64,000 nt of DNA, from the NCBI GenBank assembly GCA_036495645.1, contig DASXMN010000011.1:62940-126939 (forward strand). Direction: 5' to 3'. A model generated the notes under the pieces. That model did not search any database. It saw only the letters and a list, made by a program, of their open reading frames with translations, and was not told where the DNA came from. A program made the translations under genes and the position numbers. Below, one piece after another: positions 11,937 to 62,236 of this stretch (within the stretch, counting starts at the first letter, position 1; every line of letters begins with the position of its first letter). The stretch is from Candidatus Angelobacter sp. (GTDB lineage: Bacteria; Acidobacteriota; Terriglobia; Terriglobales; Acidobacteriaceae).

Positions 11937-12710
11937 ATGACGACACGCAGTCATGCAATCGACTCCGGCCTGCTGTGGTTTGAGCATCTGTCCCGGGCCC
12001 CAGTACCGTCACTCCGGCTGTTTTGTTTCCCGTATGCGGGAGGAAGCGCAGAGGTGTTCCGCAGATGGCAGCGATGGTTTCCTCCACAGATTGACATGTG
12101 CCTGGTGCACTTGCCAGGCCGCGGCAAGCGCATGGGCGAACAGGCATTCACTCGGATCATTCCTCTGGTGAATGCGATTGCCGCTTGCATCGGCAGCAAA
12201 ACCAACGTTCCATATGCTCTCTACGGACATAGCATGGGCGCTTTGATCGGCTTTGAATTGGCCAGAGAAATCCTTCGCAGGAGCGGCAGCGGGCCGCAGC
12301 ACCTGTTTGTATCGGGCCACCGTGCTCCGCAATTGCCAAGGATTGAACCGGTAACGTTCCACCTTCCTCATGACGAGTTCATCACGGAGCTAAAAAGGCT
12401 CAAAGGCACTCCCGAGGAAGTTTTCGACCACCCTGAGCTCATGGACATATTCATCAGTCTCCTACGAGCAGATTTCGAAGCGGTCGAAACGTACGAATAC
12501 AATCCCGGAGAACAGTTGCCCTGCCCGATTACGGTGTACGGCGGATTCCAAGACGAACATGTGCCGGTAGAAAGCTCTCGAGCATGGCAGGAGCAAACTT
12601 CGTCCTACTGTAAAATCAGGATGTTCAAGGGAGACCATTTCTTTATTCGCAGTCCCGAACCGGAATTCACGAGCGCGTTCCAAAACGATGTCCTGGAATC
12701 TGTTCCCTGA
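11937..12710 (+). CDS. type II thioesterase (editing TE of NRPS/PKS systems)
   Basis: 257 aa. Motifs are LFCFPYAGGSAEVF, the nucleophile elbow GHSMGA and the C-terminal GDHFF. GGAGGA lies upstream of the ATG. Confidence 0.9.
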   Translation: MTTRSHAIDSGLLWFEHLSRAPVPSLRLFCFPYAGGSAEVFRRWQRWFPPQIDMCLVHLPGRGKRMGEQAFTRIIPLVNAIAACIGSKTNVPYALYGHSMGALIGFELAREILRRSGSGPQHLFVSGHRAPQLPRIEPVTFHLPHDEFITELKRLKGTPEEVFDHPELMDIFISLLRADFEAVETYEYNPGEQLPCPITVYGGFQDEHVPVESSRAWQEQTSSYCKIRMFKGDHFFIRSPEPEFTSAFQNDVLESVP

Positions 12711-13197: not shown

Positions 13198-14334
13198 TTA
13201 GGATAATTTTTCCTGCGACGCCTCGGCTTTTTGAGCATCGGGCGTATGTGATTGAGCCTTCTCCCTGATCAGCCTCGCCCGGAGTTCCAGCATTGATCGC
13301 GTAACCTCATCTATCTCGCTGGCGCGAAATCCATCGGCTATCTGTGGCAGATATTGCTTGAAGGCATGCTTCGCCGCTTCTCCGAATTCCACATATCCAT
13401 GGTGAAGTATTTTCACGCCATCGGCGACTGCGATTCTTTCATTCCATGCAATTGCCTTCTGTTCTGAAAGATCGGCCGGCAAATTCAACTCCATGCGTGC
13501 GCCCGCTACTCGTACCGGATATCCTCCGGGAAGCCCAAATGGGCCGGGTACGTGGGTTTCCACATCTCGTGCGTCAAGGATGTCGCGCAGCAATACAGCA
13601 GCCGTACATCCAATCACTTTATTGACCTCCAAACCACCGCTTGTTCGTTGGCCTACCAGCAAGCTGCTCACATTCTCGCAACGCTTTCCATCAATCCAGG
13701 CCTGTGCTTCATCCACTCCAGGCTTGGGTGTGTATAAGTGCAGGTGATGGGCCATGACCTGCAAGCGCTGTTGGGGCATAAGACCCAGCGAAGACCGCAA
13801 CGTTGCCGCCAAAAGGGCAATATTGCCGATGCCGCAAAAGACTGGAAGGTCGAGGGCGCGCAACAGTGGATTGACTGCGTCAGGGTAGCAGCCATTGATA
13901 AAAAGAACTGACCGTGAATGCCCGGCAACGGCTTTGGCAAACTTGATTGCGAAAGCTGCCTGCAATGGCAATGTGAAACCAAATCCTGCGCTGCGGAGCA
14001 ACTGCGTCCATGATGAAGGTTGGTGAATACCTTCCCAGGGAGAGTAATAAGAAGCACAGTTTACGACCACGTCAGGTTGAATCGACGAAAGCAGCCTGCC
14101 AGCATCACCTGATTCGGCGTCAAATTCGACGGACTCGAAAATGACCGGTGATTGTATGCTTGCGGCTTTTGCGCGTGAGACATACATCATTTCATTCAAT
14201 TGGCTCCTGGATCGGGCGCAAATAATCACCCGATAAGGCCGGGAAAGCAATAGAGCCAACGAATAAGAAATGGCCCGCGCCAAAGACCCACTGCCGACGA
14301 TCAAGATGGTTGCATTCACGAAGTGTAATTGCAC
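13198..14334 (-). CDS. NAD(P)-binding Rossmann-fold oxidoreductase, saccharopine-dehydrogenase-like
   Basis: The start is set at GTG 14334, 9 nt after the permease stop. The track ATG 14406 would overlap the permease by 64 nt. The N-terminal dinucleotide motif is ILIVGSGSLARA, and DVVVNCAS follows. Size is ~378 aa. The family call is tentative. Confidence 0.4.
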   Translation of the reverse strand: MQLHFVNATILIVGSGSLARAISYSLALLLSRPYRVIICARSRSQLNEMMYVSRAKAASIQSPVIFESVEFDAESGDAGRLLSSIQPDVVVNCASYYSPWEGIHQPSSWTQLLRSAGFGFTLPLQAAFAIKFAKAVAGHSRSVLFINGCYPDAVNPLLRALDLPVFCGIGNIALLAATLRSSLGLMPQQRLQVMAHHLHLYTPKPGVDEAQAWIDGKRCENVSSLLVGQRTSGGLEVNKVIGCTAAVLLRDILDARDVETHVPGPFGLPGGYPVRVAGARMELNLPADLSEQKAIAWNERIAVADGVKILHHGYVEFGEAAKHAFKQYLPQIADGFRASEIDEVTRSMLELRARLIREKAQSHTPDAQKAEASQEKLS

Positions 14335-14342
14335 CTCACTTC

Positions 14343-16772
14343 TTATTCTTCTCTCAGGGCTACAATCGGGTCTACCAAAGTGGCGCGTCGAGCGGGAAGG
14401 TAACACGCGCAGAGCGAAATAACAATCAATGCCGCAACTACAGCCACCAATGTCATGGGATCGAAAGGAGGGACGTTGAATAGCAAGCTGGACACATAGC
14501 GAGTCAGGAAGAACGTGGCCACAAGTCCAATCACTACGCCCATCAGCGTTAACCGCACACCATTGGCCAGCACCAGTTGCAAGACCCGGCCCCGTGATGC
14601 TCCCAGAGCCATGCGTAATCCAAGCTCCCGAGTGCGCTGGGCAACTGAGTATGCCATGACGCCAAAAATGCCGACTGCCGCAAGCACCAGGGCGATACCA
14701 GCAAAGACAGACAACAGAACGGTGCGAAATTTCGGCTCGGAGACAGACTGCGCTACATTTTCTTGCATGCTACGAATTGCAGTAACCGGCTGATTAGGAT
14801 CGATATTGTGCACCACTGAGCGTATAACATTGGTTTGCGCCAGAGGGTCCCCAGCGGTGCGCACAACCAGGGACAGCGTCAAGACTGGAAGCACCTGATC
14901 CGCCTGGCGAAAAGGCACGTACATTTCTGAAGAAGATTCACTGGCCAGAGATTGCTTAACATCAGCAACGACTCCGACAATCTCCATCCAGGGGACACTG
15001 GAATCAGGCACAGCCCCAACTTGTATGTGCTGTCCTATTGGCGACTGGTTGGGAAAATATGTGCGCGCGAAGCTGGAATTGATTACTACTACTGCCGGAG
15101 TTCCTTCTCGGTCGCGATCTTCGATCCATCGGCCGGTCATGAGTGGTATTCCCAGCGTTTTCAAGTAGCCTCCGCTCACGGCACGATAGCTGGCAATGGT
15201 GTACTCCTGGGGAGAGCGGGGAGGGCGACCCTGAATATTGAAGTGGAGAGCCGACCCAGTGCCGGTTACTGGGAGAAAGGATACAGCCCCAACCGAGCGG
15301 ACACCGGGCAGGGCTGCCACCTGCTCAAAGAGACGATCAAAGAAACCCAAACGCACATTCCGATCACTGTACGCGGTGGGCGAACGGACTATATTCGCAA
15401 TTAAGATGTGGTCAGTGGAAAAGCCCGGAGAAACATTGGACAGTCGCTCAAAGCTCTTGAACAGAAGACCAGCCCCAACCAGCAGCAACATAGCCAAAGC
15501 GATCTCAGAAACAACCAGTGCAGCGCGTGTACGCAAAACGGCGCTCACAGCCCCGCCGCGGTTGGTTTCACTCAAAGCTTCACGCGTGTCAATGGTCCAC
15601 GTGTGACGTGCAGGGGCCAGGCCGAACAGAACACCAGGAACAAGAGCAATTAAGGCAGTGAAGCCGAGAACCGACAAATCAATAGAAACGCTATTACTGC
15701 GGGGAAGGCTGCTCCCCGCCAGCCGCGTTAAAAGTGGCACTGCGGCCCAAGCCAACGCGAGCCCCAAAACGCCGCCGGCAACGGCCACCAGGATGCTTTC
15801 CGCCAATAGCTGGCGAATAATGTCGAAGCGCTGAGCTCCCAAAGCGATACAGACTGCCATCTCACGCCGCCGGCCGGTGGCGCGAACAAGCAGAAGATTG
15901 GCGACATTCGCACAGGCAATCAGGAGCACAACTCCCACTGCGCCGATCAAGACCCAAAGCGCAGTGTGAACGTTCTGCACAACCTGCTCCAGCATGGGAT
16001 CCACCAGTGCTGAAACATTGGTGTTCGTTTCCGGATATTGCTGCTCCAGTTGTTTGGCAATCACGGTCATCTCTGAGCGGGCCTGCTCAAGCGAAACATT
16101 CGGTTTTAGTCGGGCTATGGGTAGAATTCCGGGATGCCAGCTACGATCATCCGGCAGTGTTCTGGCCCAGGGCTCAAACGGCAGGATGACATCTGCCGCC
16201 TGCTGAAGGATCTCAAACTTTGGCGGCATCACGCCGATAATCGAATAGTTCTGATTGTCCAAGGTAATGGTCTTGCCAAACACGTCGCGAGAAGACGAAA
16301 ACTGCCGCTCCCAGAGATTATGGCTGATGATCGCCACAGGGGGCGCGCCCGGCTTATCTTCCGCGTCAGAGAAGGTGCGGCCAAATTCCGGTTTGACTCC
16401 TAAGAGATCAAAAAGATTGGCAGTAACATTTTGGGTGGGCAGCCTTTCAGCTTCGGTGACCCCCGTCATGGTCATCACGTTATTACGCACGGCTCCCACT
16501 GCTTCAAACGAGTGGCTCTGGTCGCGCCAGTCCTTGTAATTGAGATAGGACAAGGACAACCTGGGAAACTGCGGCCAATGCTCAGCAAGCAGCACCAGTC
16601 TTTGCGGATCGCGATATGGAAGAGGACGAAGCAGGACAGCATTCACGATGCTGAACATCGCGCTATTTGCCCCGATTCCCAAAGCCAGTGTAAGCACAGC
16701 TACGACGGTAAATCCGGGATTGCTTTTTAACCTGCGAAGCGCAAATTTGAAATTCTGTGCGAGCGTAAACAT
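14343..16772 (-). CDS. MacB/FtsX-type ABC permease of the ADOP (acidobacterial duplicated orphan permease) type
   Basis: 809 aa. The N-terminus is RRLKSNPGFTVVAVLTLALGIGANSAMFSIVNAVLLRPLPY. It has two FtsX-like membrane halves separated by large periplasmic segments. No ATPase gene lies next to it. Confidence 0.8.
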   Translation of the reverse strand: MFTLAQNFKFALRRLKSNPGFTVVAVLTLALGIGANSAMFSIVNAVLLRPLPYRDPQRLVLLAEHWPQFPRLSLSYLNYKDWRDQSHSFEAVGAVRNNVMTMTGVTEAERLPTQNVTANLFDLLGVKPEFGRTFSDAEDKPGAPPVAIISHNLWERQFSSSRDVFGKTITLDNQNYSIIGVMPPKFEILQQAADVILPFEPWARTLPDDRSWHPGILPIARLKPNVSLEQARSEMTVIAKQLEQQYPETNTNVSALVDPMLEQVVQNVHTALWVLIGAVGVVLLIACANVANLLLVRATGRRREMAVCIALGAQRFDIIRQLLAESILVAVAGGVLGLALAWAAVPLLTRLAGSSLPRSNSVSIDLSVLGFTALIALVPGVLFGLAPARHTWTIDTREALSETNRGGAVSAVLRTRAALVVSEIALAMLLLVGAGLLFKSFERLSNVSPGFSTDHILIANIVRSPTAYSDRNVRLGFFDRLFEQVAALPGVRSVGAVSFLPVTGTGSALHFNIQGRPPRSPQEYTIASYRAVSGGYLKTLGIPLMTGRWIEDRDREGTPAVVVINSSFARTYFPNQSPIGQHIQVGAVPDSSVPWMEIVGVVADVKQSLASESSSEMYVPFRQADQVLPVLTLSLVVRTAGDPLAQTNVIRSVVHNIDPNQPVTAIRSMQENVAQSVSEPKFRTVLLSVFAGIALVLAAVGIFGVMAYSVAQRTRELGLRMALGASRGRVLQLVLANGVRLTLMGVVIGLVATFFLTRYVSSLLFNVPPFDPMTLVAVVAALIVISLCACYLPARRATLVDPIVALREE

Positions 16773-16896: not shown

Positions 16897-19800
16897 TCAA
16901 TGCACGGCAAGAGCGGCTTTAAGTTCTTCAGGGCTCATCCTGCGGACCCTAAGCCAAATCTTTGCGATTTTTTCCAGTTCCTCCACAGGGCGTCCGGAAA
17001 TGGAACGTAGCTTCTGGGCAAACTCCATCAGCACCGAATGTTCGAGAAGGGTCGGCACGGAAAGTTCCGTCTGGAAACAGTCATTCACCCGGAACAATAC
17101 ACGGAGCGCGAGCAATGATTGTCCACCCAACGCGAAGAAGTCGTCATGACGGCCTACTTGCTCCAATTTGAGCACCTCCGCCCAAATGGCCGCCACCACG
17201 GTCTCAAGGTCTCCCTGCGGCGGTACATACTTATGCACCGCATACGCATCCCCTTGGGGCGCTGGCAAACTTTTACGATCCAGCTTGCCATTCGGCGTCA
17301 AGGGCAAAGATTCCAACTGCACATACGCTGCCGGAACCATGTACTCCGGCAAACGCTCGCGAAGAAAGGAGCGCAGATCGGAGCGCAGGGATTCGGGACC
17401 CGGTAAAGCATGCGGAGCTGAAGGGCAATAGTAAGCCACCAAACGCTTCTCTCCATGCGCGTCTTCCCGTACTATGGCTATCGCTTCCTCCACTGCGGGG
17501 TGCTCCTGCAGTCGCGCAGTAATCTCCCCAAGTTCAATACGGAATCCGCGAATCTTTACCTGATCGTCGTTCCGCCCCACAAATTCCAGGCTCCCGTCTG
17601 CCAGCCATCTCCCTACGTCGCCTGTTTTGTACATGCGCGCACCCGCTTGTCCTATATAGGGATCGGGCACGAAGCGCTCCGCCGTCAAATCCGGCCGATG
17701 CAAATATCCTCGGGTTACACCCGCTCCCACGATGTATATCTCCCCTGCTACACCGACCGGAACTGGTTCTCCTTGCCCATCCAGGATGTACACCCGCGTG
17801 TTCGCAATCGGCCGGCCGATCGGCACTGTTTGCCTGCTCAATGAGCGGGTACAACAGTGCATGCTCGCCCACACCGTACCTTCGGTAGGACCATACTCAT
17901 TGAATAGCTCAACTTGAGGTTGTTGCTGCGCTGACTTTGCCACTAAGTCCGGTGGGCAAACCTCGCCCGCAACGATCACCCGGGAAATCTGTTGCTTCTG
18001 TTCGCCGCCAACGGGATATTCCAAAAAGTGCCTATATAAAGATGGAACACAGAGCAGGGTTTCCACTCGCAGACGTTGAACCTCTTGGTTGAGACGCAAT
18101 GGATCGTGAACTAAATCATCTGGGGCAATGATTAACGTGCCCCCATGGATAAGACTTCCAAAGATACCTGCCACCGAACTATCAAAGGAGATGGAAGAAA
18201 GTAGCAAAAAACGGCCCAATTGACCGTAAGCCAGCTTCCTGGCAAAGGTTGAGCTCACAAGATTCTGGTGACTCACCATGACGCCTTTGGGCTTGCCGGT
18301 GGAACCAGACGTGTAAAGAACATAGGCCAGATGCCCAGCGATGAGCTTCGAGCCGGCAGCCTCTGGATTGCTCTCCGGTTGGCTGTTCCAAACAGCATCC
18401 GTCAAATCCAGTGTGGGCAGGCCAGCAGGCAATGACCCCATCCGCTCCCTTACTTGAGCTTGCGTCAGGAGGGCGACCGGTTCACTATCCTGCAGCATGT
18501 ACTGCAAACGTTCCGGCGGATAGGCCGGATCCAGTGGCACATAGGCACCCCCTGCCTTGAGTATGGCCATGAGTCCTACAATCATCTCCAGACCCCGCTC
18601 CACGCAGATGGCCACCCGCGCTTCCGGCTTCACTCCCAGAATCAAAAGATAATGCGCCAATCGATTTGCTTGCCGGTTCAGTTCACCATACGTCAACTGC
18701 CGCCCTGCATACTCCACCGCTGTCGCTCCGGGGGTTCTCTCCACCTGCTCCACGAACAATTCGTCAATGCGCTTGTTTGAGGGATATTCAACCCCAGTCT
18801 CATTCCACTGATACAGAACTTGCTCTCGCTCCCTTTCACTGAGCATGCCCAGGCGATCCACCATCTCCCATTCCTGCGCTACCATTCCTTCCAGCAATCT
18901 GCAGAAATATCCAAGGTAGCGTTTGACGGTGCCGGGCTCAAACAACGCGATGGCATACTCCAACCCGCCGATGATCGTCCCATTTACCTCCTGCAAAATA
19001 AGTGTCACGTCGAATTTTGCCGGCTGATAAGGTATCGACTCCAGCAGCTTCGCTTCCACTCCTGGAAGCATAATGGTCCCCCCTGGCTCGTTCTGCCAGC
19101 CGAAGGTCGCTTGAAACAGGGGGTGATGGGCCAGACTGCGCTCCGGTCTTACTATCTCCACTACCCGCTCAAACGGCAGGTTGTGGTTCTGTTGCCCTCC
19201 CAATGCCACTTCCTTCACCCGTTTGAGTAACTCTTTTACTGTCACGGCGCTGCTTACATCCACGCGCAGGGCCAGAGTATTCACAAAAAATCCAATCAGC
19301 CCCTCAATCTCCGCTCGCTCCCGATTAGCCACCGGCGTGCCGATCACCACCTCTGTCTGACCCGACAGTCGTGACAGCAACGCTGCCCAGCCAGCCAGCA
19401 GCGTCATATATAAGGTTGTTCCCTGACGCCAGCTTAGTTCTCTCAATGCCGCCGTCAATCCCTGCTCAAGTACCAACTCCTCAATACCTCCCCTATAGTC
19501 CTGCTGCGCCGGTCGCGCATGGTCCGTGGGTAACTCAAGCATCGCTGGTGCGTCCTGCAAAGCTCTTTTCCAGTACTCGCACTGCTGCGCCAATACGTCT
19601 CCTTCCAGCCACTGCCGTTCCCAGATCGCATAGTCCGCATACTGGACTGCTAACTCCGGCAATGGGTCTTCTTCGCCGCGCCGGAAGGCACTATACAATT
19701 TGCTCACTTCATTACGAAAAATACCCATGGACCACCCATCGGAAACGATATGGTGCATGGTGATGAGCAACGTGTGTTCATCCTCCGACTGGCGGATTAG

Positions 19801-22800
19801 TCGACCGCGGATCAACGGTCCCGTTTGCAGATCAAAAGATGCGTTGGCCTCCTCGGCCACAAGGCGGTTCAGTTCCGCGTTCGCATCCCGATGCTGACGC
19901 AGGTCCTGCTCCAGCAGATGAAACCGGCTGTCTGCAGCCGAGGCAATGTGCTGCCCGGGTTCTCCCTCAACGGAGACGAAAGTAGTGCGCAATGCTTCAT
20001 GTCGCGCCAAGATCCGGTCCAGCGACCGCCGCAAGGCTCCAGCATCCAACTCGCCCTTCAAATGCAGGCCCATCGGCACGTGATATGCATGGCCAGCCTC
20101 CGCTATCTGCGCCAAAAACCATAAGCGTTGCTGCGCAAACGACAACGGTAACCGCTGCCCTCGCTCCGCACGCACAATCGCCGGCAACTTGGCTCGCGCT
20201 GCGCCTTTCAGACTACTGGCCAGGTCCGCCAGTACTGGATGCGCAAACAGATCCCCTACCGTCATGGCCATATCCAACTCTTGCCGGATGCGCGTGACGA
20301 CTCGCGCCGCCAGGAGTGAGTGTCCACCCAGAGTAAAAAAATTATCGCACCGGCCGACTTGTTCGACGTGGAGCAACTCAGCCCATACCTCGGCGAGCAT
20401 TTTCTCCGTCTGCCCCTGCGGAGCTTCGTACGGTTGGGCCGCATACGCATCTGCTCCTGGGGCCGGCAATGCCTTACGGTCGAGTTTCCCGTTCGCGGTC
20501 AGTGGCATCTGGCCCATCCGGACATATACCGTCGGCACCATATACTCCGGCAGTTTTGCTTCAAGCCAGCGACGAAGTTCAGGTGCAAGACCTTCAGACA
20601 GAAGTGGCTGCAAAGGATCGTTGGAATAAATTTGCGGCCGTCCTAAGATTTCAGTCTCTCCCGGAAACCTCACTCTCCTGGCCTCCTTCGCATTCTTACC
20701 ATCGCCACGTCTGCGGAATAGCACGTCACAGAGCGCGGGTCCGCTTTGGGACCAGCGAACCTCGATGCTATAAGGCAAATCTTCTTCCAGTAACCAAATA
20801 TCTTCCAACTCAATCGCGCATTGCTGTTCACGGTCTAATTGGCGCCGCAGTTCGCCTACGGTAGCCGGGCAATGGCTTGAATGAAGAATTCGCGTGGCCG
20901 TGACATCGCGCTGGACTCGAGAGTTCGGAATGCCTGCCACCCCCAGCACTTCGGGCCCGGTCCGGTTCAAGATCTCCCGTAGCCGCTCTGGACTCAAATC
21001 CTTCTCGCTCCAATCAATCCAATGACATTCCAAAAACGTAACGGGCCTGCCCACGTGAAGCACGACATCATAGCGGAAGCTTGTGAGTTCATTGCCCGCG
21101 TAACCCCGTTTCAAATTGATTTCCACCCGGCTGATCTGCGGCAAGCGTTGCGGTAAGCTGGTGAAGAATTCCGGGGAAATAGCCAGCTCGCTCTCCTGCT
21201 TCAAATTTTTTTGCGCACTCTCCCGCACTTCCTGGCATAAGCGGGAATCTGGCGACTGGAAGAATTCAACCGAAGTATGGAAGGTTTCCAGCAATGGAAA
21301 ACTGCGCACGTCCCCGATAAAAATCTTCCCTCCTGGCGGTAAGGATTCCATCGCACCGGTCAGCACGGTCATTAAATATTGGACAGCGGGAAAATACTGG
21401 ACTACTGAGTTCAAAACGACCGCATCAAATTTCTCGCGCTCCTCCGGAACATCGAATTCATGCGCTGCTTTGCAATCCAGCTCTATTGCAGGCAAATTCA
21501 GCTCAGAGTGGTGTATCTGCTGCTCCAGAAAATCCAACACTGCTCGTGACACGTCGGTTCCGCGGTAGTAGACGCAGATGGGTGCAATGCGAAAGAGCAA
21601 CAGTCCTGTGCCGCAGCCAATTTCCCAGACCCGCTTCGGTTCCAAGGAAAGAATCCGTTGCACAGTGGTCTCTACCCAAACCTGCATCTCCTCTGCTGGA
21701 ATCGGCTGACCCGTGTAGCTGCTATTCCACCCGGCAATGTTGAAGGCCGAGTCTTTAACTGTCTCTGTCTTGCGGTAGGCTTCATCGAAGGTCATTGCCC
21801 ATTCCGATACCTGACCCGCACTGAAGTCCGCCCGCTTTTTGTTCTGATTGAGGCCACGATAATCCTTGTCGGGGACAAAGTAGGCCACCAGGCGTTTGTC
21901 CCCGGGGGTGTCTTCCCGCGCCAGCACCACGGCTTCTGCTACTCCCGCATGCTCGCGCAGCCGCGCCTCAATCTCGCCCAACTCAATGCGGAAGCCGCGG
22001 ATCTTGACCTGATGATCGTTGCGGCCCAGGAACTCGATGGTGCCATCGGGCAGCCATCGGCCCAGGTCGCCGGTCTTGTACATGCTAGCCTGCGCATCCT
22101 GAACGAAGGGATCGCGAAGGAAGCGTTCTGCGGTAAGCTCCGGGCGATTGAGATAGCCATGAGCCACGCCTGCACCGCCGATGTATAACTCTCCCGTCAC
22201 CCCCACCGGCACCGGCTCTCTCTGACCGTCTAATATGTAGATACGCGTGTTCCCGATGGGACGTCCAATGGGAATGCTCTGGCCCTCGCTCACCTTCAGA
22301 ATTTCGTACGTGGCAGCAAAAGTGGTGGTCTCAGTGGGCCCATAGCCATTGAGCAGGTGTTGCGGCGGGTTGTTCCGCAGCACCCGCCCAATGGTCACCG
22401 GGTCCAGCACATCACCTCCGACCAGCAGATAATGCAAGCTGCCCCAGTCAGCGCTCAACTTTTCGGCGTACTGGTTGAACAGGCCCACGGTCAGCCACAG
22501 AATGCTCACCTGATGCTGCTGCAAGGCTTGTGAGAATCGCGCCGGATCCAGCAGCACATCCTGGGCAATGACCACGATGCGTGCGCCGTTGAGCAGTGGC
22601 GCCCATACCTCCAGCGTGGTGGCATCAAAGGCCGGATTGGCGGCCATGGCCACCCGGTCGGTAGCGTCAAAGCGAGCAAAGCCGTTGTTCAGCACCAGCC
22701 GCTGGATGGCGCGGTGCGGCACCATTACCCCTTTGGGGGTTCCCGTCGAACCCGAGGTAAACATGATGTAGGCCGTAGCCTGGCTGCTTACGTTTATGCC

Positions 22801-23316
22801 CAGATCGGTTTCCCAATCGGGACTCTGACTCTGGTCAGTGGCCAGAATGCTTTGCGGCAGATCCAGGTTGACCCTGACCACCTCCGGCACGTCTGGCATT
22901 TCTGTGTGCTGGAGAGTGAGCAGGACTTGGGCCTGGCAATCGCTGATGAGCAAGGTCTTGCGTTGGGCGGGGAAGGCCGGATCAATAGGCACATAAGCAG
23001 CACCGCACTTGAGAATGGCCAGTTCTGCTATTACCAGTTCGATGGAGCGTTGCAGGAGCAGGGCAACTCTGTGACCGGGCTGGACTCCGATCGTGCGCAG
23101 ATAGTGGGCCAGCCGGTTGGCCCGCTGGTTCAGTTCGGCATAAGTGAAGGAAGTATCTTCCAACACCACGGCGGTGGCCTGAGGAGTTCTCGCCACCTGC
23201 TCTTCAAACAACTGATGAACACATTTGTCTTTGGCGTAGTCGGTCTCTGTGCGGTTCCACTCATACAAAATCTGCTGTCGCTCTGCGTCCGACAGCATCT
23301 CACCGGATTTATTCAT
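16897..23316 (-). CDS. non-ribosomal peptide synthetase NRPS4: A(embedded N-methyltransferase)-T-C-A-T
   Basis: The start is set at ATG 23316, preceded by GGGAGA; the track start 23328 is a GTG. There is no N-terminal C domain. A motifs are FTSGSTGTPKG, NGYGPTE, YKTGD and GRNDHQVKIRGFRIELGEIE. A ~430-aa insert carrying VWEIGCGTGLL follows, then LPEYMVP/NGKLDR. T1 is FFTLGGHSL. The C domain has MHHIVSDGWS. A second A domain follows, and T2 is FFALGGQSL. It ends about 45 aa after T2 with no TE, R or terminal C domain. Confidence 0.95.
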   Translation of the reverse strand: MNKSGEMLSDAERQQILYEWNRTETDYAKDKCVHQLFEEQVARTPQATAVVLEDTSFTYAELNQRANRLAHYLRTIGVQPGHRVALLLQRSIELVIAELAILKCGAAYVPIDPAFPAQRKTLLISDCQAQVLLTLQHTEMPDVPEVVRVNLDLPQSILATDQSQSPDWETDLGINVSSQATAYIMFTSGSTGTPKGVMVPHRAIQRLVLNNGFARFDATDRVAMAANPAFDATTLEVWAPLLNGARIVVIAQDVLLDPARFSQALQQHQVSILWLTVGLFNQYAEKLSADWGSLHYLLVGGDVLDPVTIGRVLRNNPPQHLLNGYGPTETTTFAATYEILKVSEGQSIPIGRPIGNTRIYILDGQREPVPVGVTGELYIGGAGVAHGYLNRPELTAERFLRDPFVQDAQASMYKTGDLGRWLPDGTIEFLGRNDHQVKIRGFRIELGEIEARLREHAGVAEAVVLAREDTPGDKRLVAYFVPDKDYRGLNQNKKRADFSAGQVSEWAMTFDEAYRKTETVKDSAFNIAGWNSSYTGQPIPAEEMQVWVETTVQRILSLEPKRVWEIGCGTGLLLFRIAPICVYYRGTDVSRAVLDFLEQQIHHSELNLPAIELDCKAAHEFDVPEEREKFDAVVLNSVVQYFPAVQYLMTVLTGAMESLPPGGKIFIGDVRSFPLLETFHTSVEFFQSPDSRLCQEVRESAQKNLKQESELAISPEFFTSLPQRLPQISRVEINLKRGYAGNELTSFRYDVVLHVGRPVTFLECHWIDWSEKDLSPERLREILNRTGPEVLGVAGIPNSRVQRDVTATRILHSSHCPATVGELRRQLDREQQCAIELEDIWLLEEDLPYSIEVRWSQSGPALCDVLFRRRGDGKNAKEARRVRFPGETEILGRPQIYSNDPLQPLLSEGLAPELRRWLEAKLPEYMVPTVYVRMGQMPLTANGKLDRKALPAPGADAYAAQPYEAPQGQTEKMLAEVWAELLHVEQVGRCDNFFTLGGHSLLAARVVTRIRQELDMAMTVGDLFAHPVLADLASSLKGAARAKLPAIVRAERGQRLPLSFAQQRLWFLAQIAEAGHAYHVPMGLHLKGELDAGALRRSLDRILARHEALRTTFVSVEGEPGQHIASAADSRFHLLEQDLRQHRDANAELNRLVAEEANASFDLQTGPLIRGRLIRQSEDEHTLLITMHHIVSDGWSMGIFRNEVSKLYSAFRRGEEDPLPELAVQYADYAIWERQWLEGDVLAQQCEYWKRALQDAPAMLELPTDHARPAQQDYRGGIEELVLEQGLTAALRELSWRQGTTLYMTLLAGWAALLSRLSGQTEVVIGTPVANRERAEIEGLIGFFVNTLALRVDVSSAVTVKELLKRVKEVALGGQQNHNLPFERVVEIVRPERSLAHHPLFQATFGWQNEPGGTIMLPGVEAKLLESIPYQPAKFDVTLILQEVNGTIIGGLEYAIALFEPGTVKRYLGYFCRLLEGMVAQEWEMVDRLGMLSEREREQVLYQWNETGVEYPSNKRIDELFVEQVERTPGATAVEYAGRQLTYGELNRQANRLAHYLLILGVKPEARVAICVERGLEMIVGLMAILKAGGAYVPLDPAYPPERLQYMLQDSEPVALLTQAQVRERMGSLPAGLPTLDLTDAVWNSQPESNPEAAGSKLIAGHLAYVLYTSGSTGKPKGVMVSHQNLVSSTFARKLAYGQLGRFLLLSSISFDSSVAGIFGSLIHGGTLIIAPDDLVHDPLRLNQEVQRLRVETLLCVPSLYRHFLEYPVGGEQKQQISRVIVAGEVCPPDLVAKSAQQQPQVELFNEYGPTEGTVWASMHCCTRSLSRQTVPIGRPIANTRVYILDGQGEPVPVGVAGEIYIVGAGVTRGYLHRPDLTAERFVPDPYIGQAGARMYKTGDVGRWLADGSLEFVGRNDDQVKIRGFRIELGEITARLQEHPAVEEAIAIVREDAHGEKRLVAYYCPSAPHALPGPESLRSDLRSFLRERLPEYMVPAAYVQLESLPLTPNGKLDRKSLPAPQGDAYAVHKYVPPQGDLETVVAAIWAEVLKLEQVGRHDDFFALGGQSLLALRVLFRVNDCFQTELSVPTLLEHSVLMEFAQKLRSISGRPVEELEKIAKIWLRVRRMSPEELKAALAVH
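20584..21867 (-). other. methyltransferase domain inserted between A8 and A9 core motifs of the first A domain of NRPS4
   Basis: This is aa ~488-915 of NRPS4. The SAM motif VWEIGCGTGLL lies at nt 21598-21630. GWNSSYTGQPIPAEEMQVWV is the block I associate with NRPS N-methyltransferase domains. Confidence 0.7.
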
Positions 23317-23352
23317 GGTTTCTCCCACGAAGTCCTCGACGCAAAAGGGTGT

Positions 23353-26300
23353 TCATCTTGTAGAAAGGGCGGCTGTTCGTTCCTCAGGTGTCATCTTGCG
23401 GACCATAAGCCCAATTCTGGCTATTTTTTCCATTTCCTGGACGGGACGAGCCGAAATGGAACGCAGCTTCTGTGCAAATTCCGTGAACACCGGATATTCA
23501 AGAAGCGTCCGCACTGAAAGCCCCGTCTGGAAATAGTCATTGATCCGGGATACTACGCGAAGCGCGAGCAGGGAGTGTCCGCCCAGAGCGTAGAAGTTGG
23601 AGCGCATTGAAACGCGTACAACTCCCAGCACCTCCTTCCAAAGGTCTGCAAGCAACTCCTCGATAGCAGTCATTGCCTCCGGAACATCTTCATGGATCTC
23701 CTGGAGCACTCTGTCTTCCACCTCCGGAAGAGCTCTGCGGTCCACTTTTCCATTCGTGTTGAGCGGCAGCTCGGGCAACATCACGTACACACCCGGCACC
23801 ATGTACTCGGGCAGCTTGGCTTTCAGATAATTCTTTAACTCGTCAGCATTCGCTTCGCCGGAAACGTAGGCCACCAGCTGCTTGCCACTTGCAAGGGTCT
23901 TCATCAGCACGGCACAATTTCGTACTCTGCGATGCTGCAGCAGGGCCACCTCAATCTCGCCCAACTCTACCCGGAAGCCGCGTATCTTGATCTGATTGTC
24001 CGCGCGGCCAAAGAATTCCAGATTGCCATCTTCCATCCAACGGGCAAGGTCCCCGACGTTATAGAGACGTCCGCCCGGTTGGCCATAAGGATCAGGGACA
24101 AATCTCTCCGCTGTTAATTCCGGCCTTCTCCAATAACCTCGCGCCAGTCCTTCGCCGCCTATATACAATTGGCCCCTTATTCCCACGGGCTCAAGGTTCA
24201 TGTTGCGATCCAGCACATAGAGCTGCGTATTTGCGACCGGCTTGCCGATAGGCACACTTGGTGCGTCCCTAGCCACTTCTTTTACGACATACCAACCACT
24301 GAACGTGGTGCACTCGGCAGGCCCATATGCATTCACTAGCCGCTCCGGCCCTCCATGCTCAAGCACCGCAGCCGCCGTTACGGGATAAACTGCTTCCCCT
24401 CCAAACAGCAGGTGCTTCACCGAATTAAACATGGCGGGTTTCAGGCGTCCCACTTCATTGAACAATGCGGTAGCCAGAAACATGACTTGCACACGCTTGT
24501 CTATGATCTCTGCCGCAAACCTCTCTACGTCCAACAGCACTTCATTGCCGATGATCACCAACCGGCACCCATTCAACAGAGCGCCCCATATCTCAAATGT
24601 GGATGGATCAAAGGACATGTTGACGGTCTGGGCCACTACCTCATCACCCTGGAATTGGATGTAGTTAGTTTCACGCAGCAGCCGGATCAAGCTGCGATGG
24701 CTTACCGCTGCGGCTTTCGGCTGTCCCGTCGAGCCGGACGTATAAACGACGTAAGCAAGGTTTTCCGGCAACACCTGCGTTTGGAAACTCTGATGGCTTT
24801 GCTGCGCGATCTCGTCCCAATCACGGTCAAGGCAAACCACATTTGCTTTCAACGTCGGAATGCGATTGGCCAGGCGTCCTTGTGTCAGCCAAACTCCGAT
24901 ATCGGAATCCTCTGCCATAAAACGCAGCCGGTCCGGTGGATATGCAGGATCGATAGGAACATAGGCTCCCCCGGCTTTGAGAATGCCCACCATCGCGAGC
25001 ACCATGTCCACGGAGCGCTCAACGCTGATGCCCACCAGCTTTTCCGGACCGACGCCCAGATTCCTTAAATAACGTCCAAGCTGGTTTGAGCGGCGGTCCA
25101 GTTCGATGTAGCTGATTTTCTCCTGGTCGCAGATCACGGCCAATTCTTCCCCACGGCGCTCGACCTGCTCTGCGAACAGCTCCATCATGGTTCTGTTGCG
25201 AGGATATTCTGTGTGGGTCTGATTGAATTCCACCACAATCTGTCGGCGTTCCCGCGCATCGAGTAAATCGATGAAGTTTACAGGCTGATCGGGAGCGGTG
25301 GCATAGGCCGTAAGAAGACGTACAAAGCGCCGGCTCATGGTCTCTATAAGACTGGAACTGAAGTGGTCGGGATTATAAGTAAAATACATTCCCAGACGCC
25401 GGCCGGGAGCAACCACCACAGTTAAAGGATAGTGAGCGGCATCATTGAGGTCCATCACTGTGAACCGCAGACCGCCGGACGGTTCCGCATCCCCTTCTTC
25501 TCCTCTGGGGAAGTTCTCAAACACCACCAGAGTGTCAAATAATTCATTCAATTTCGTCAGGCGCTGAATTTCCACTAGTCCAAGGTGTTGATGAGCAAGC
25601 AGGCGGGATTGCTCCTGATTCAACCGGCTCACGACATCGTTGAATGAATCGGCGGAGCGCAGGGTTACACGCGTGGGCACAGTATTGATCAGAAGTCCAA
25701 TCATGCTTTCAACGCCCGCGATCTCCGGAGAGCGTCCTGAAACGGTGCTCCCGAACACCACGTCCTCGCGGCCAGTGTGCCGTGATAGCAGAACAGCCCA
25801 CGCGCCCTGGACTATGGTATTGACGGTCAAATTGCGGGCGCGTGCCTGCTCTTTCAGCCGCCGCGTGGTCTCTTCGTCGAGTTCAACAATCATTCGCTCA
25901 GGTATTTTTGGGTCGCCCAGTGAAGCCAGCGGGCTGATTCGTGTGCCTTCTTCGAGCCCAGCCAGCGTTTCCCGCCAGGCAGCTTCGGCAGCGCTGCGGT
26001 CCCGGCTGGAAAGCCACGCCAGATAGTCCCGGAATGCCGTGACCCGGGGCAAAGCAGCAGCACTGCCATGATGCTCATAGAGTTGCTGCAACTCGGCAAT
26101 CATCAATGGCACAGACCATCCATCTACCAGGATGTGATGAGTGGTGATCAGTAGGCGGAATTCTTCAGGTGCACAGCGGACCATAAGAAATCGAAACAGT
26201 GGCGAGACACTCGGATTAAAGCGGGTCAGCCGATCGCGTTGCATGAGTTCAGCCCAGCTCTGTTCACGTTCAACCGCCCCAAGCGCGGAGAGATCAAGGG

Positions 26301-29300
26301 TATCCCATGGCACAGAAACATCTCTTGGTATGATTTGCACCGGCCGGTCCAGGTCTTTGTACTTGAAAGCCACGCACAAATTTTTGTGGCGACGAAACAA
26401 AGCTTTAGCTGCATCTTGAAGCGATTTTTCATCGAGCGGCCCTTCCAGACGGAGAGCGATCTGGACGTTGTACACATCCGGTCCACCCGCATCATAAAAA
26501 GCATGGAAGAGCATTCCCTCCTGGACCGGTGTGAGCGGCAATATGTCTTCGATTTCTCCGTATTCGCTCTCAAGCTGGTCAATTTCAGATTGGGAGAGGG
26601 CGACCAGGGGCACGTCAGACGGCGTGAGTCCTCCCGATCCGGGTTGTTCGCTATGCTGGACAAGCGCTTCCAGCATGTGGAACCACCCTTCTGCCAATGA
26701 ATGAACGTCCTGTTCTGAAAATATTCCCGGCATCCACGTCCAGATGGCCGTCAACTCCGGACCGGCAGCCCGCTCCAGGACCATGGAATCCACTTGCAAT
26801 GGATGATGGAAGGCCATTTCAGGGTCCAGGCCTCCACTGAAAGATTCGGCGGGTGCCCAATCGACAGTTTCCGCCACCGGAAAACGGCCCAGGTAGTTGA
26901 AGTCAATTTGAGACTTGGCCAGAGCAGACAAAACTGACTCAGTTTCAGGATTCAAATAGCGCAGCAATCCATAACCAATCCCATTGTTGGGGACCGCGCG
27001 AAGCTGTTCCTTGATTGATTTGAGTGCTATTCCCAGCGCTTCCCCTCCCGCCCAGGCTTCCTCAAGGTCCAGCGGACCAGGATCAAGACGCACAGGAAAG
27101 ATGCTGGTAAAAAACCCCACCGTGCGCGAAAGATCAACCCCGTCGAAAATGCTTTCCCGCCCATGGCCTTCCATGTCAATTAAAACGGACGTGCCATTGC
27201 CCGGATGACGCTGTCGCCGCCATTTCAGAATGCTGAGAACCAGCCCAGTGAGCAGCACGTCATTGATTCGCGCATGAAATGCGCCTGCAACCCGGCTTAG
27301 CAAAGGAGCAGTAACTTTGGGCGGCAACGTAAGAACAATCTGGCTGGCTTTGCCCACGGTATCGCGACCGGGAACGAGTTGGTGGCCGGGAACAAGTTCC
27401 AGTGCGTCCTTCAACGTGTCAGTCCAGAAGGATAATTCCTTCACTCGCTCTGGATTCAGCGCCTCACGGCTTAATCGTTCAGCCCAGCCTCGGAATGAGA
27501 CGGGGGATGGTTCAAGTAGTGGAGAATTTCCAGCACTGATTGCTGCCCAGGCGGACGCGAGGTCTGGCAAGAGGATTCGCCAGGACACTCCATCGACGGC
27601 TAAATGATGGATAACCAGCAGCAAATGGCCGGACGAACTGCGGCCCGCGTCAAACCATATAGCCTGCAGCATGAGTCCGTTTTCAGCGGACAGCCGTTTC
27701 GTGGCAGCTTGTGCCTCCTCCTGTATCTTCTGCCTGCATACATCATCGGCAAGTCCTGCGATATAGATTGCATGCAAGCACGATTCTGCATTCACCGCGC
27801 CTTGCGCCAGTACCTCCAGTCTCCATTCCTCTCTGCGCCCTTCCGCGCCGGTGAAACGCAGGCGCAGAGCATCGTGATGATCCAGTATCGTCTGCAAAGC
27901 GCGCGCAAGATCCTGGCGCTCCAGATTGGCCGGGACTTGCAGCACAATAGACTGGCTGAAGCTATGCAGCGTGCCACCTGACTCCAGGAACCAGCACATG
28001 ATCGGAGTGGGTGGCATGGCTCCTACTCCGACATCGGGCACGGCAGCCGCCGCATCTTCGTTTTGGGCCTGGGAAATGCCCGCGAGGGCCTCAATCGTCG
28101 ATTGTTCAAAAACATCGCGCAAGCTAACGATCAGCCCCACTTTCCGCGCGCGACTGACCAACTGAAATGCCAAAATGCTGTCACCGCCCAGAGCGAAGAA
28201 ATTATCGTCCGGCGTGGCGCGAGAGATGCCGAGCACCTGCATCATGAGTGAACAGAAAACTTCTTCCGCATGTGTGCGAGGCGCGCGCCCTGAACGGCCC
28301 CCCATGAATTCAGGCGTCGGCAATGCCTTGCGGTCGAGCTTGCCGTTCGAGTTCAAAGGCAGAGAGGAGAGAACCGTAATGGAGGCGGGCACCATGTAGT
28401 TGGGCAGCATGTGAACCAGGCGCTCGCGCAACTCAGTGGCATTTAAGCTGCGGCCCGGGGCAGGAACCACGTAGGCAAACAGCCGCTTCTCCTCCTTCTT
28501 GTCCTCGCGCACAATCACGGCTGCGTGGCCCACGCCGGAACAGCCCAACAAAGCTGCCTCAATTTCTGCCAACTCGATGCGATATCCGCGAAGCTTGACC
28601 TGCTGGTCAGTTCGTCCCAGGAACTCTATCTGCCCGTCTTCTCTCCAACGCACTCGATCGCCGGTGCGATACATGCGTCCGCCAGAATTACGGAAGGGAT
28701 TCGGGACAAAACGCTCTGCCGTAAGATCAGGCCGTTTCAAATACCCGCGCGCCACTCCGGCGCCGGCAATAAATAACTCACCGGGAATACCCACCGGGAC
28801 CGGCTTGAAAGCAGAATCCAGAACGTAGACCTGGTGGTTATCCATGGCGCTGCCAATCGGCACATTGCCGTTCAACTTCTCCGGGTTGGACACCGCATAA
28901 TGGGTGGCAAAAGTAGTGGTTTCCGTTGGTCCGTAGCCATTGCACACCAGGGTCTCAGGGCAATGCCGGCGCAGCCGTTGGACGGCGGCGGCGGAAACAA
29001 CATCGCCGCCCGCCCATATCTCAGGAACACCGGAAAAGCATTCCGGTGCCTCCTGAACCAGCACATTGAAAAGGGCGGCTGTGAGGAACGTAGACGTGAT
29101 TTTCTCCGTCTGGAACAAACGCTTGTAATCGGCAACATCCAACTCGCCGGGCGGCGCAGTGATGACCTGTTTGCCTCGCAGTAATGGGGCCCAGATCTCG
29201 AACGTCGAAGCGTCAAAAGCGTGGGAAGAATGAAACAGCACTCTTTCCAAGCTCCCCTCCCGCCAGCTACGGTCGAATGCCAGGCTAACAACATTGCGGT

Positions 29301-31539: not shown

Positions 31540-32718
31540 TTATGTCTCAACTCTTACTGAAATGTAATCTGCTATCGGAGGAATCGATGCCAGGCCATGC
31601 TCCAGAATCTGGACCCCTCCTCTGTTCTCGATTTCCGTAAATCCAGCAAACTTGTAAGTGACGTACATCATGCGGTTGCGGTCATTCGATACAAATTCAG
31701 AAAGCAGCCGGACCCTGGATTCCCGCGCCTTCCTCAGAATATGGTTCAACATGATTGTGCCCACACCCCGGTTCATCACCCGGCAGGACATGAGCAGCAG
31801 CTCGATCGTCCACACTTCAGGATCGCATTCCACCAGGGCAAGGCCAATTTTTCCGTAACTGCCAAACTTGTCAGTCAACTCAGACATGAGCAGGAGGTGG
31901 CGATCTGAGCACCGCAGTTTTTCCAGCTCTTCCCGGGAAAAGGTGCGTCCCGTGGTGTTGAGTTGATTGGTACGGTTGGTAAGTTCCTCCGCCCGGGCCA
32001 GGTCTTCGGCACGCGCAGGAGAGATCGTAAACACCATGCCGAGAGTAGCGAGGAATTCCTCCTGTGGTCCGGTGAATGTGTCTTCTGTCTGCTTACGTCG
32101 CATTTCGCCCAGATACATCTGGCGTCGCATGCGGGATTCTGCCGTGATGGTCTCAGGGTTTAGTTCCGGCATCCGCAGCAGATGGAGCAATTGGGTATGG
32201 TCCACACAAAGGACCTGCGGCAGTGCAGCCCGGACTTCCGCAAGCTCAAAGGGCTGGTCGTCAATAAAACAGATGCTATCCAGGCCGATGTTAAGACTTT
32301 CAGCGATCATCCGTATGGAAGCCGCCTTGGATCCCCAGTTAATCTGGGGATACAGGAAGTATTCTTCCAACTCCAGTTCACGCAACCGGGCCAGCGCCGA
32401 TTCTGGATGATTGCGGCTAGCGATGGAGTTCAGAATGCCGCGAGCATCAAGTACGTGGATGATTTCCAGAACACCATCGCGCAGATGTACCTCATCGCCT
32501 TCAAGCAAAGTCCCGTCCCACAGGGTATTATCCAGGTCCCAAACGACGCACTTGACCTTGGGCCGTTTCACGGGCGCCGCGGCGTCTCTTGAAATTTCGT
32601 TTTGGATTCCGAGTTCATTCACAAGTAACGTCTCACTTGGCCGTGACTGCGCTGTCCGCAACTTCCTGACAGGCACTCTGCGCAATCGTGATTTCCTGGA
32701 TCTCATTGCTGCCTTCAA
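31540..32718 (-). CDS. FkbH-like HAD-superfamily phosphatase/acyltransferase (glyceryl-ACP forming)
   Basis: The HAD motif I block is VVWDLDNTLWDG, followed by NSIASRN...GSKAASI...FIDDQPFE. There is a GNAT-like C-terminal half. The start is uncertain: ATG 32718 overlaps the upstream gene by 86 nt, whereas GTG 32622 lies 10 nt past its stop. Confidence 0.85.
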   Translation of the reverse strand: MKAAMRSRKSRLRRVPVRKLRTAQSRPSETLLVNELGIQNEISRDAAAPVKRPKVKCVVWDLDNTLWDGTLLEGDEVHLRDGVLEIIHVLDARGILNSIASRNHPESALARLRELELEEYFLYPQINWGSKAASIRMIAESLNIGLDSICFIDDQPFELAEVRAALPQVLCVDHTQLLHLLRMPELNPETITAESRMRRQMYLGEMRRKQTEDTFTGPQEEFLATLGMVFTISPARAEDLARAEELTNRTNQLNTTGRTFSREELEKLRCSDRHLLLMSELTDKFGSYGKIGLALVECDPEVWTIELLLMSCRVMNRGVGTIMLNHILRKARESRVRLLSEFVSNDRNRMMYVTYKFAGFTEIENRGGVQILEHGLASIPPIADYISVRVET

Positions 32719-33784: not shown

Positions 33785-33796
33785 AAAGATCCAGCG

Positions 33797-34054
33797 TCAA
33801 TTCGCGCCGTTCTGCGAGTTCGAAGTCTTTCTCTCTATCAGCTCCGCCATGGCGTTAACGCTCTGAAAATTTTTTAGCTCCAGGTCCTCGTTGCCAATGG
33901 CGATCTTAAAGTTCTTTTCCAGGAACAATACGAGTTGCATGGCAAACATAGAGTTGACAAACCCAGCCGCAAAAATCTGATCGTCATCAGCAATCGTCCG
34001 GCCGCTGATATGTCGCCCCAGGAAAGCCCTCAGTTTTTCTTTCGATTGCTCCAT
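33797..34054 (-). CDS. discrete acyl carrier protein (FkbJ/ZmaD-like)
   Basis: 85 aa with a DltC-like carrier pattern, GFVNSMFAMQLVLFLEKNFKIAI...NFQSV. The phosphopantetheine Ser is in NSM. Confidence 0.75.
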   Translation of the reverse strand: MEQSKEKLRAFLGRHISGRTIADDDQIFAAGFVNSMFAMQLVLFLEKNFKIAIGNEDLELKNFQSVNAMAELIERKTSNSQNGAN

Positions 34055-34078
34055 GAATTTCTTTCCTTGCAGGATTGA

Positions 34079-57455: not shown

Positions 57456-57730
57456 GACCGCTGCTAAAATTTTTGGCAAGAGTTTACCTCGGCTTCCTGC
57501 GAATTTACCTGGAGTGTGGCTCCCAGGGACGGAAAAGACAAGATTAGCCCCGGGCCTCAAGCAGTAGAGGGAATCGGGATAAATACGTGAGATTCCGGCG
57601 TTCCAATGAATTTCCCGAATACCAGCTTTCGTAAACCATAACCCGGCAGCACCGCATTTCCAAACATAAAATAAGTTCACATTTGCGTCTACATTCCGCC
57701 TTGATGCCTGACAATAGCAGGAAGGACTTT

Positions 57731-61877: not shown

Positions 61878-62236
61878 CCCCAATGTGAACCTTGGCGCTA
61901 CGGCAGTCGACAAGATGGAAATGATGGCAATTCCCATGTTTGCCGATGATTCCTTTCACTCTCCTTATTTCGATCGGTCGTATACGCAGCTTTCGCCCAC
62001 AACGACACTCGTAAAACTGCGAGGGATTAAGGTATTTGAGTTAATAAACCGATTGCGCGTTCCAAAATAGAACAGCTCTGCTTTTCCAGCTCTCAATTAC
62101 GATTGAATCAGACTAATGAATCTTGTTTAATTGGTTTACTAGCCGCTGGCCCCTTCTCACCTTGACCGGACTGGCGTCTTAATCACCACGATCTTCGACC
62201 GTGTGCAGCGGTAGTTTTTTCTGGCACCGGCGCTCG

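Follow-up and report, generated by a model that had tools for sequence, protein, structure and literature searches.

Protein order and chain release in a thioesterase-less five-protein NRPS–PKS cluster of Candidatus Angelobacter: a possible role for duplicated terminal docking elements

When the last gene of a megasynthase operon encodes the only protein that looks like a beginning, and none of the proteins carries a release domain, in what order do the proteins act and how does the chain leave them? The question is raised by a cluster of four nonribosomal peptide synthetase (NRPS) genes and one polyketide synthase (PKS) gene on contig DASXMN010000011.1 of Candidatus Angelobacter sp., within the 64,000-nucleotide stretch analyzed here (the window, to the whole of which all coordinates refer). 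The five genes lie on the minus strand, in the transcription order NRPS1, NRPS2, PKS, NRPS3 and NRPS4. Judging from their sequences, we give an even chance to the reading that they encode a thioesterase (TE)-less assembly line in which terminal docking elements, and not gene order, would set the order of the proteins; the order that best fits, though it is not proven, is NRPS4→NRPS2→PKS→NRPS3→NRPS1.

Candidatus Angelobacter is an uncultured soil lineage with very large NRPS/PKS repertoires, the majority of its reported clusters being singletons without characterized relatives (PMC9723581). The present cluster is not described in that paper, and a literature search combining Acidobacteria and docking domains returned no article. 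Orthologs were collected from fragments, long metagenomic contigs, 16 GTDB genomes and JGI metagenomes (loci labelled L002-L097), and the cluster proved common to at least 12 species-level Ca. Angelobacter/Terriglobia genomes (among the GTDB loci L009-L024). It is an uncharacterized peptide–polyketide system of known and fairly ordinary design, with some unusual details.

Domain architecture of the five megasynthases

Domain maps were drawn with Pfam and with phmmer searches using the cluster's own condensation (C), adenylation (A) and thiolation (T) domains. Further domains are epimerization (E), N-methyltransferase (N-MT), ketosynthase (KS), acyltransferase (AT) and acyl carrier protein (ACP).

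47691..55856, minus strand: NRPS1, 2721 aa, head(1-41)-C-A-T-C-A-T-C-T; proposed last protein
38159..47686, minus strand: NRPS2, 3175 aa, head(1-57)-C-A-T-C-A-T-C-A(dead)-T plus a 31-aa basic tail
34965..38162, minus strand: PKS, KS-AT-ACP; its start overlaps the NRPS2 stop
23353..31323, minus strand: NRPS3, 2656 aa, head(1-49)-C-A-T-E-C(DCL-like)-A-T-tail
16897..23328, minus strand: NRPS4, 2143 aa, A(N-MT between A8 and A9)-T-C-A-T-tail; proposed initiation protein

Pfam recognized only Condensation, AMP-binding, PP-binding and methyltransferase domains in the four NRPSs and only KS, AT and PP-binding domains in the PKS, and neither a Thioesterase nor an NAD_binding_4 reductase domain in any of the five. 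Every megasynthase closes on a carrier domain followed by 14-35 further residues, and none possesses a canonical NRPS termination module (TE, reductase, or a terminal C after the last T), which bears out what an earlier sequence-only reading had claimed of the megasynthase ends. That reading overlooked that a C domain does occupy the last module of NRPS1, where it is followed by T. The HHxxxD motif is kept in all C domains, and the carrier serines are intact in all carrier domains. NRPS3 contains the sole E domain of the cluster, a true and internal one followed by a C domain with a DCL-like N-terminus, and its C1, at 29-34% identity, diverges more than any other elongation C domain. Separately, NRPS1 C1 and NRPS2 C1-C3 form one subfamily, 47-71% identical, in which HHxxxD(D/E)W replaces the usual HHxxxDG (residue 178 of NRPS1; residues 194, 1259 and 2335 of NRPS2).

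NRPS4 is the only possible starter of the line, because it opens with an A(N-MT) domain that no C precedes and because C1 of NRPS1 is not a starter C. The sequence-only reading was right about this A-first start (A from residue ~41) and wrong in stating that the protein has no C, which is found at residues 1057-1504. The NRPS4 reading frame is closed upstream, the starts of its orthologs coincide with its own, and residues 1-40 resemble the remnant of a C-A linker. As had been proposed, C1 of NRPS1 is an ordinary elongation-type domain with HHxxxD intact; a lipo-initiation (starter) role was considered for it and rejected, since, at 47-52% identity, it falls among the internal elongation C domains of NRPS2. 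With the sole initiation-type start located in what is here the last megasynthase gene, the proposal that gene order probably differs from biosynthetic order stands. The position of the NRPS4 gene varies among orthologs; L014 and L015 have a full NRPS3 ortholog with the permease gene described below as its immediate downstream neighbor and no NRPS4 after it. NRPS4 is also shorter in L022 (1782 aa), and apparently in L002, where the methyltransferase insert has possibly been lost.

Stachelhaus positions were extracted by alignment to the GrsA Phe A domain, the known code of which, DAWTIAAICK, was reproduced as a control. The first A domain of NRPS4 yielded DALWLGGTFK, which we take to be Val-like, so that with its N-MT motifs NRPS4 would presumably initiate by activating and methylating its substrate, probably giving N-methyl-valine. 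The first A domains of NRPS1 and NRPS2 share the code DALWLGGVFK, also taken to be Val-like, and their second A domains gave DLFNNALTYK (presumably Ala-like) and DVQFNAHAAK (presumably Pro-like), respectively; the remaining A domains gave codes that are presumably hydrophobic or were left unassigned.

Two modules have no working A domain of their own.

47736..49349, minus strand: A-less terminal C-T module of NRPS1, HHIVSDG and GGYS intact
38534..39691, minus strand: truncated, degenerate A domain of NRPS2 module 3, in frame in orthologs

In NRPS2 module 3, where YTGAQEGHAKG stands at the A3 motif, the A domain lacks both the A4-A5 substrate-pocket core and the A10 lysine, and the remnant is in frame with the same defects in L093, L096 and L097; by these motifs the domain is inactive. 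Neither NRPS1 module 3 nor NRPS2 module 3 can load its own carrier, and the building block must come from another A domain. No free-standing A-T protein and no SyrC/CmaE-type shuttle enzyme was found in the conserved cluster.

Terminal tails and heads and the order of the proteins

The megasynthases carry the terminal extensions of a multi-protein NRPS/PKS line, tails of 31-35 aa on NRPS2, NRPS3 and NRPS4 and heads of 41-57 aa on NRPS1, NRPS2 and NRPS3, and two of the tails and two of the heads are paralogous.

16897..17142, minus strand: tail4, the C-terminal half of the last NRPS4 T domain plus a 35-aa post-T tail (…RPVEELEKIAKIWLRVRRMSPEELKAALAVH)
23353..23598, minus strand: tail3, the NRPS3 C-terminus, paralog of tail4 (…RPVQEMEKIARIGLMVRKMTPEERTAALSTR)
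55734..55856, minus strand: head1, 41 aa ahead of NRPS1 C1, core KKDQAEEERELLHLLLQKEGLG
47516..47686, minus strand: head2, 57 aa ahead of NRPS2 C1, core KKDRLEEERELLRRLLEKEGLG
31177..31323, minus strand: NRPS3 head, 49 aa (…LTPAQREMLQKRLRGEG…), which by eye looks like a distant version of the head1/head2 helix motif

The ends of NRPS3 and NRPS4 are near copies, as the sequence-only reading had noted, with 55 of 81 residues (68%) and 186 of 246 nucleotides identical, a value well above the 45% identity of the two A-T regions overall. Identity amounts to 74% in the T-domain part, compared with a median of 37% for all pairs of the cluster's 11 carrier domains, and to 63% beyond the T domain. Among 1.84 billion representative proteins, phmmer retrieved for the last 49 aa only eight real relatives, all of which match at their extreme C-terminus; the full-length ones are NRPS-sized and the others are short fragments. 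The tail type thus has a narrow distribution and always stands at the end of the protein. When the heads and tails were compared with Pfam (E≤10) and with PDB sequences, the matches were all spurious, and no solved docking domain was among them. One of the tail relatives, P0170 (2724 aa), has the architecture A(N-MT)-T-C-A-T-C-(A remnant)-T with a tail3-like tail (…IALMVRRMTPEQRKAAL) at its end, so that a further cluster combines the A-less C-T design with this tail type.

On the acceptor side, the first 30 residues of NRPS1 and NRPS2 (55767-55856 and 47597-47686) are near copies as well (20/30 aa, 70/90 nucleotides), and the head cores are about 73% identical; the likeness had been attributed to the heads and in fact spans all of module 1. 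The two first modules are 67% identical overall, with 52% in the C domain and 85% over the full length of the A domain, rising to 93-100% over a core of ~420 aa. Such A1 cores next to C domains of 52% identity indicate gene conversion between NRPS1 and NRPS2. The near-identical A1 domains, with the same Val-like code, lie at ~52900-54400 in NRPS1 and ~44700-46200 in NRPS2. None of the three heads has a Pfam match at E≤10, and with a length of only 41-57 aa and a single conserved helix they differ from TubC_N, the beta-hairpin docking domain of ~60-70 aa with an alpha-beta-beta-alpha-alpha fold; the helix core resembles an N-terminal motif of other NRPSs and of the NRPS3 head (..QREMLQKRLRGEG versus ..ERELLRLLLQKEG).

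Given that a T-domain half plus tail and a head plus C plus Val-type A have been duplicated in parallel, the simplest explanation is duplication of a single inter-protein junction as a whole, which in turn supports the pairing of these tails with these heads. The donor side of the duplicated cassette would consist of half a T domain and a basic helical tail of ~35 aa, the acceptor side of an acidic helix head, a C domain and a Val-type A domain, and the duplication would leave two junctions of like kind in one line. It might be argued that the likeness stems instead from a shared trans-acting partner, such as the CmlA-like hydroxylase or the thioesterase described below, or simply from recent duplication or gene conversion: besides the tail, the T-domain core is similar too, conversion has clearly been at work in the A1 domains, and the CmlA-like hydroxylase, whose substrates are carrier-bound amino acids, is a conserved member of the cluster. 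We nevertheless consider this very unlikely. The tails occupy the extreme C-terminus in every homolog and extend ~35 aa past T; the in-cis T-C linkers are far shorter than these tails or the heads (41-57 aa) and are unlike either; the acceptor-side elements are duplicated in parallel; and the two tail types, once diverged, have been kept fixed, a history that does not look like ongoing conversion.

This fixation is the evidence, of an indirect kind, that bears on specificity. Heads and tails are nearly invariant within each type. All 12 tail3 orthologs read …ARIGL(M/I)VR(R/K)M(T/S)(P/A)(E/D)(Q/E)R(K/T)AAL, and all 14 tail4 orthologs …I(or M)WL(R/K/G)(V/I)(H/R)(R/S/G)M(T/S)(P/S/A)E(E/Q)LKAAL, with the fixed differences G versus W and R versus L (I-G-L..E(Q/E)R versus I-W-L..E(E/Q)L). 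Likewise, about 30 head1 orthologs conform to KKDQAEEERELLRLLLQKEGLG and about 12 head2 orthologs to KKDRLEEERELLRRLLEKEGLG, the A versus L and L versus R differences being essentially fixed (KKDQ-A..LLR-L-LL versus KKDR-L..LLR-R-LL). The two similar tails facing two similar heads are therefore real and conserved, as had been proposed. The ambiguous docking deduced from them by the sequence-only reading fares less well, because interchangeable elements would not be expected to hold their differences across a dozen species; instead, the fixed type-specific residues argue for specific docking, and in the proposed line they (G/W and R/L in the tails, A/L and L/R in the heads) would keep the two junctions apart. 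Docking of either tail with either head would yield a short NRPS4→NRPS1 product and/or re-entry of the NRPS3 chain into NRPS2, and hence a product family as in the rhabdopeptide/xenortide (RXP) systems. The degree of identity between the paired elements would allow it, the presence of the same A domain in both acceptor modules means that cross-docking would be chemically tolerated, and the RXP systems provide a precedent (PMC6195595). On the other hand, RXP promiscuity goes with single-module subunits that are used iteratively, an architecture different from the present one, and the type-specific residues are fixed in every ortholog examined, from at least 12 species-level genomes; promiscuous docking is thus distinctly unlikely.

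With NRPS4 at the start, the order NRPS4→NRPS2→PKS→NRPS3→NRPS1 is preferred because every conserved element is used once, leaving unpaired only the NRPS1 C-terminus after '…EKLEH', which is short and variable among orthologs, and because it keeps the conserved pair formed by the NRPS2 tail and the PKS start (83-86% conserved in L096, the sole ortholog compared, where the genes also abut). The divergence of NRPS3 C1 would fit a polyketide donor and hence a position after the PKS. The gene arrangement also invites a nearly colinear order, NRPS4→NRPS1→NRPS2→PKS→NRPS3, in which the starter gene alone is displaced, the short NRPS1 C-terminus hands over to NRPS2, and the NRPS3 tail either brings in a release factor or passes the chain back to a head. 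NRPS1, NRPS2 and PKS are adjacent, NRPS2 starts from a few bases to ~120 nucleotides from the NRPS1 stop in all orthologs seen, and the genes from NRPS1 to NRPS3 would then be colinear. However, the near-invariant head2, which is of the same type as head1, would have to accept a poorly conserved tail unlike tail3 and tail4, the strongly conserved tail3 with its own fixed residues would be left without a partner, and the conserved cluster yielded no release-protein candidate that has a head-like helix. We regard this order as unlikely.

Several observations weigh against the docking-based order that we prefer. Three other orders (4→1→PKS→3→2, 4→1→3→2→PKS and 4→2→3→1→PKS) also pair both tails with both heads and are formally possible, although none of the three leaves just the C-terminus of NRPS1 unpaired. 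The adjacency of NRPS1 and NRPS2 in every ortholog also fits a hand-over from the former to the latter. Residue complementarity is contradictory, with charge favoring tail3-head1 and size favoring tail4-head1, and was not used as an argument, and the AlphaFold2 model of T plus tail, which suggests two tail helices, is of low confidence (predicted local distance difference test score, pLDDT, of 59). Finally, the conserved cluster offers no free-standing loader for the two A-less carrier domains, and no release catalyst was found, the thioesterase being absent near most orthologous clusters.

Chain release, cluster borders and accessory genes

If NRPS1 acts last, the chain would end on its A-less C-T module and leave the terminal T with the help of a trans-acting activity, most likely a hydrolytic one. 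This is the weakest step of the proposal and is offered as a working guess, with low confidence. Two genes next to the cluster bear on it.

11937..12710, plus strand: free-standing type-II-like thioesterase, 257 aa, PF00975 fold, GHSMG; synteny not conserved
13198..14319, minus strand: NAD(P)-type protein with a lactate/malate dehydrogenase (LDH/MDH)-like fold, 373 aa, conserved, marks the border

The thioesterase adjoins the cluster in the window and, of about 15 orthologous loci with enough downstream sequence, in L009 and L022 only; the other loci, about 13 in number, lack it over the downstream stretch covered, which extends to 10 kb or, on shorter contigs, less far. Because it is so seldom found beside orthologous clusters, its claim to be an obligatory release enzyme is weak. 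A 37%-identical thioesterase accompanies a pair of genes for the 373-aa protein and a Zn-dependent alcohol dehydrogenase (Zn-ADH) in a different NRPS cluster. The borders of the cluster are kept among orthologs, with the CmlA-like gene on one side and the 373-aa LDH-like gene on the other, and no genes are shared among the orthologous loci beyond them, where the neighborhoods vary by genome; the 309-aa gene at 62183-63112, for instance, is absent at orthologous loci. A release gene just outside the window is unlikely for this reason. The sequence-only reading had named both the thioesterase and a gene beyond the window as candidates; nothing within the cluster explains release, and both of these candidates have lost ground.

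The 373-aa protein has no Pfam or NCBIfam family match, and its AlphaFold2 model (pLDDT 93) matches LDH/MDH folds with a template modelling (TM) score of ~0.55. A role as a trans-acting thioester reductase, suggested by the resemblance of 'NGCYPD' to the ArgC active site, was rejected in view of this confident LDH/MDH-like model, of the pairing of the gene with a Zn-ADH gene in an unrelated NRPS cluster (L007), and of relatives (~45% identical) in many actinomycetes, in non-NRPS contexts. The L007 copy of the Zn-ADH is 70% identical to that of the present cluster. The 373-aa protein is more likely a precursor or tailoring dehydrogenase. Its listed 402-aa reading frame starts too early, a GTG at 14319 agreeing with the orthologs.

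The remaining genes of the cluster comprise a permease gene, a set downstream of the PKS gene (31540..35023) and four conserved genes upstream of NRPS1.

14343..16772, minus strand: ADOP-family duplicated MacB/FtsX permease, directly after the last NRPS gene in all orthologs
31540..32718, minus strand: FkbH (TIGR01686, 270 bits), hydroxymalonyl-ACP-type set
32633..33784, minus strand: acyl-CoA dehydrogenase, hydroxymalonyl-ACP-type set
33797..34054, minus strand: discrete ACP, an 85-aa PP-binding protein, hydroxymalonyl-ACP-type set
34079..35023, minus strand: 3-hydroxyacyl-CoA dehydrogenase, hydroxymalonyl-ACP-type set
56379..57680, minus strand: Zn-ADH, conserved, upstream of NRPS1
57683..58957, plus strand: major facilitator superfamily transporter, conserved, upstream of NRPS1
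59116..59814, minus strand: heme-oxygenase-like diiron protein, conserved, upstream of NRPS1
60237..61877, plus strand: CmlA-like beta-hydroxylase, conserved, upstream of NRPS1

The genes for FkbH, the 3-hydroxyacyl-CoA dehydrogenase, the acyl-CoA dehydrogenase and the ACP lie side by side, as in an FkbH-I-J-K-type extender pathway, and the hydroxymalonyl form is proposed because no O-methyltransferase is present. In the PKS, the KS Cys/His/His residues are present, and the AT has GYSIGE in place of GHSxG together with HAFH, a motif that we take, as is usual, to denote malonyl-CoA. This HAFH motif contrasts with the complete hydroxymalonyl-ACP gene set directly downstream. The start listed for the 433-aa reading frame of the Zn-ADH is probably ~68 codons too early, the L007 and L005 copies being homologous from residue ~70 onward, and the CmlA-like gene occurs in two variants, either upstream of NRPS1 or downstream of the LDH-like gene. 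No ABC ATPase gene lies near the ADOP-family permease, the position of which is in line with the reported association of Angelobacter clusters with MacB. The names carried by homologs place the cluster in Ca. Angelobacter/Terriglobia (Acidobacteriota), and a permease of this family agrees with that placement.

Relation to known systems

Non-colinear gene order, TE-less synthetases and A-less modules are already known phenomena. In the Bacillus NRPSs (tyrocidine, gramicidin S, surfactin), the order of the subunits is set by communication-mediating (COM) domains, short helical elements at the donor and acceptor ends, and the donor follows an E domain. Here, in contrast, both tails follow the T domain of C-A-T modules, and the cluster's E domain is internal to NRPS3, so that these elements are not of the COM type. 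Module 9 of SyrE is A-less and is loaded in trans via SyrB1/SyrC, SyrE still ending in a TE, and in the yersiniabactin synthetase HMWP2 and the fungal ferrichrome synthetases one A domain serves several carrier domains. The C-T module of NRPS1 and the C-A(dead)-T module of NRPS2 likewise need an outside A domain, but neither an A-T protein nor a shuttle accompanies them in the conserved cluster. Coelichelin synthetase CchH is a TE-less NRPS released by the separate hydrolase CchJ; a TE-less line with a free-standing alpha/beta-hydrolase candidate resembles it, but the thioesterase here is not conserved with the cluster, and its role in release is therefore doubtful.

The closest analogue is the junction between PaxA and PaxB of the Xenorhabdus PAX-peptide NRPS, where the C-terminal docking domain (CDD) of PaxA together with the preceding T domain (T1-CDD) binds the helical N-terminal docking domain (NDD) that stands before the C domain of PaxB (Watzel et al. 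2021, PMC8251938). The conserved paralogous unit of the present cluster likewise spans a T-domain half and the tail, which would be consistent with docking of this kind; the differences are that the present elements have no sequence likeness to solved docking domains, that the tail is longer (~35 aa, with two predicted helices), and that the head has a single helix core of ~22 aa. The RXP NRPSs (Hacker et al. 2018, PMC6195595) share with this cluster the repeated use of like docking elements in a single system, and with it the question whether other assembly orders and families of products arise, but the RXP subunits are single modules used flexibly, whereas the present heads have no TubC_N match and fall into types with fixed residues.

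It is tempting to go further and see in the T-coupled two-helix tail and single-helix head a lineage-restricted docking class that would be used twice in one line, made orthogonal by about two residues per side, and combined with an end on an A-less C-T module from which off-loading would need no TE, reductase or terminal C; taken as a whole, this is a long shot. Since the cluster is common to a dozen species-level genomes, its product is probably important to the genus, and predicting that product, synthesizing it or expressing the cluster heterologously requires taking into account the protein order, the two A-less modules and the absence of an encoded release enzyme. Set beside the known systems, the cluster is modestly unusual in having a duplicated junction whose two copies would be kept distinct by a few fixed residues, and a release step without an assigned enzyme, and, if its near-identical tail/head pairs are truly orthogonal, it would provide a compact natural example of a docking specificity code for NRPS engineering.

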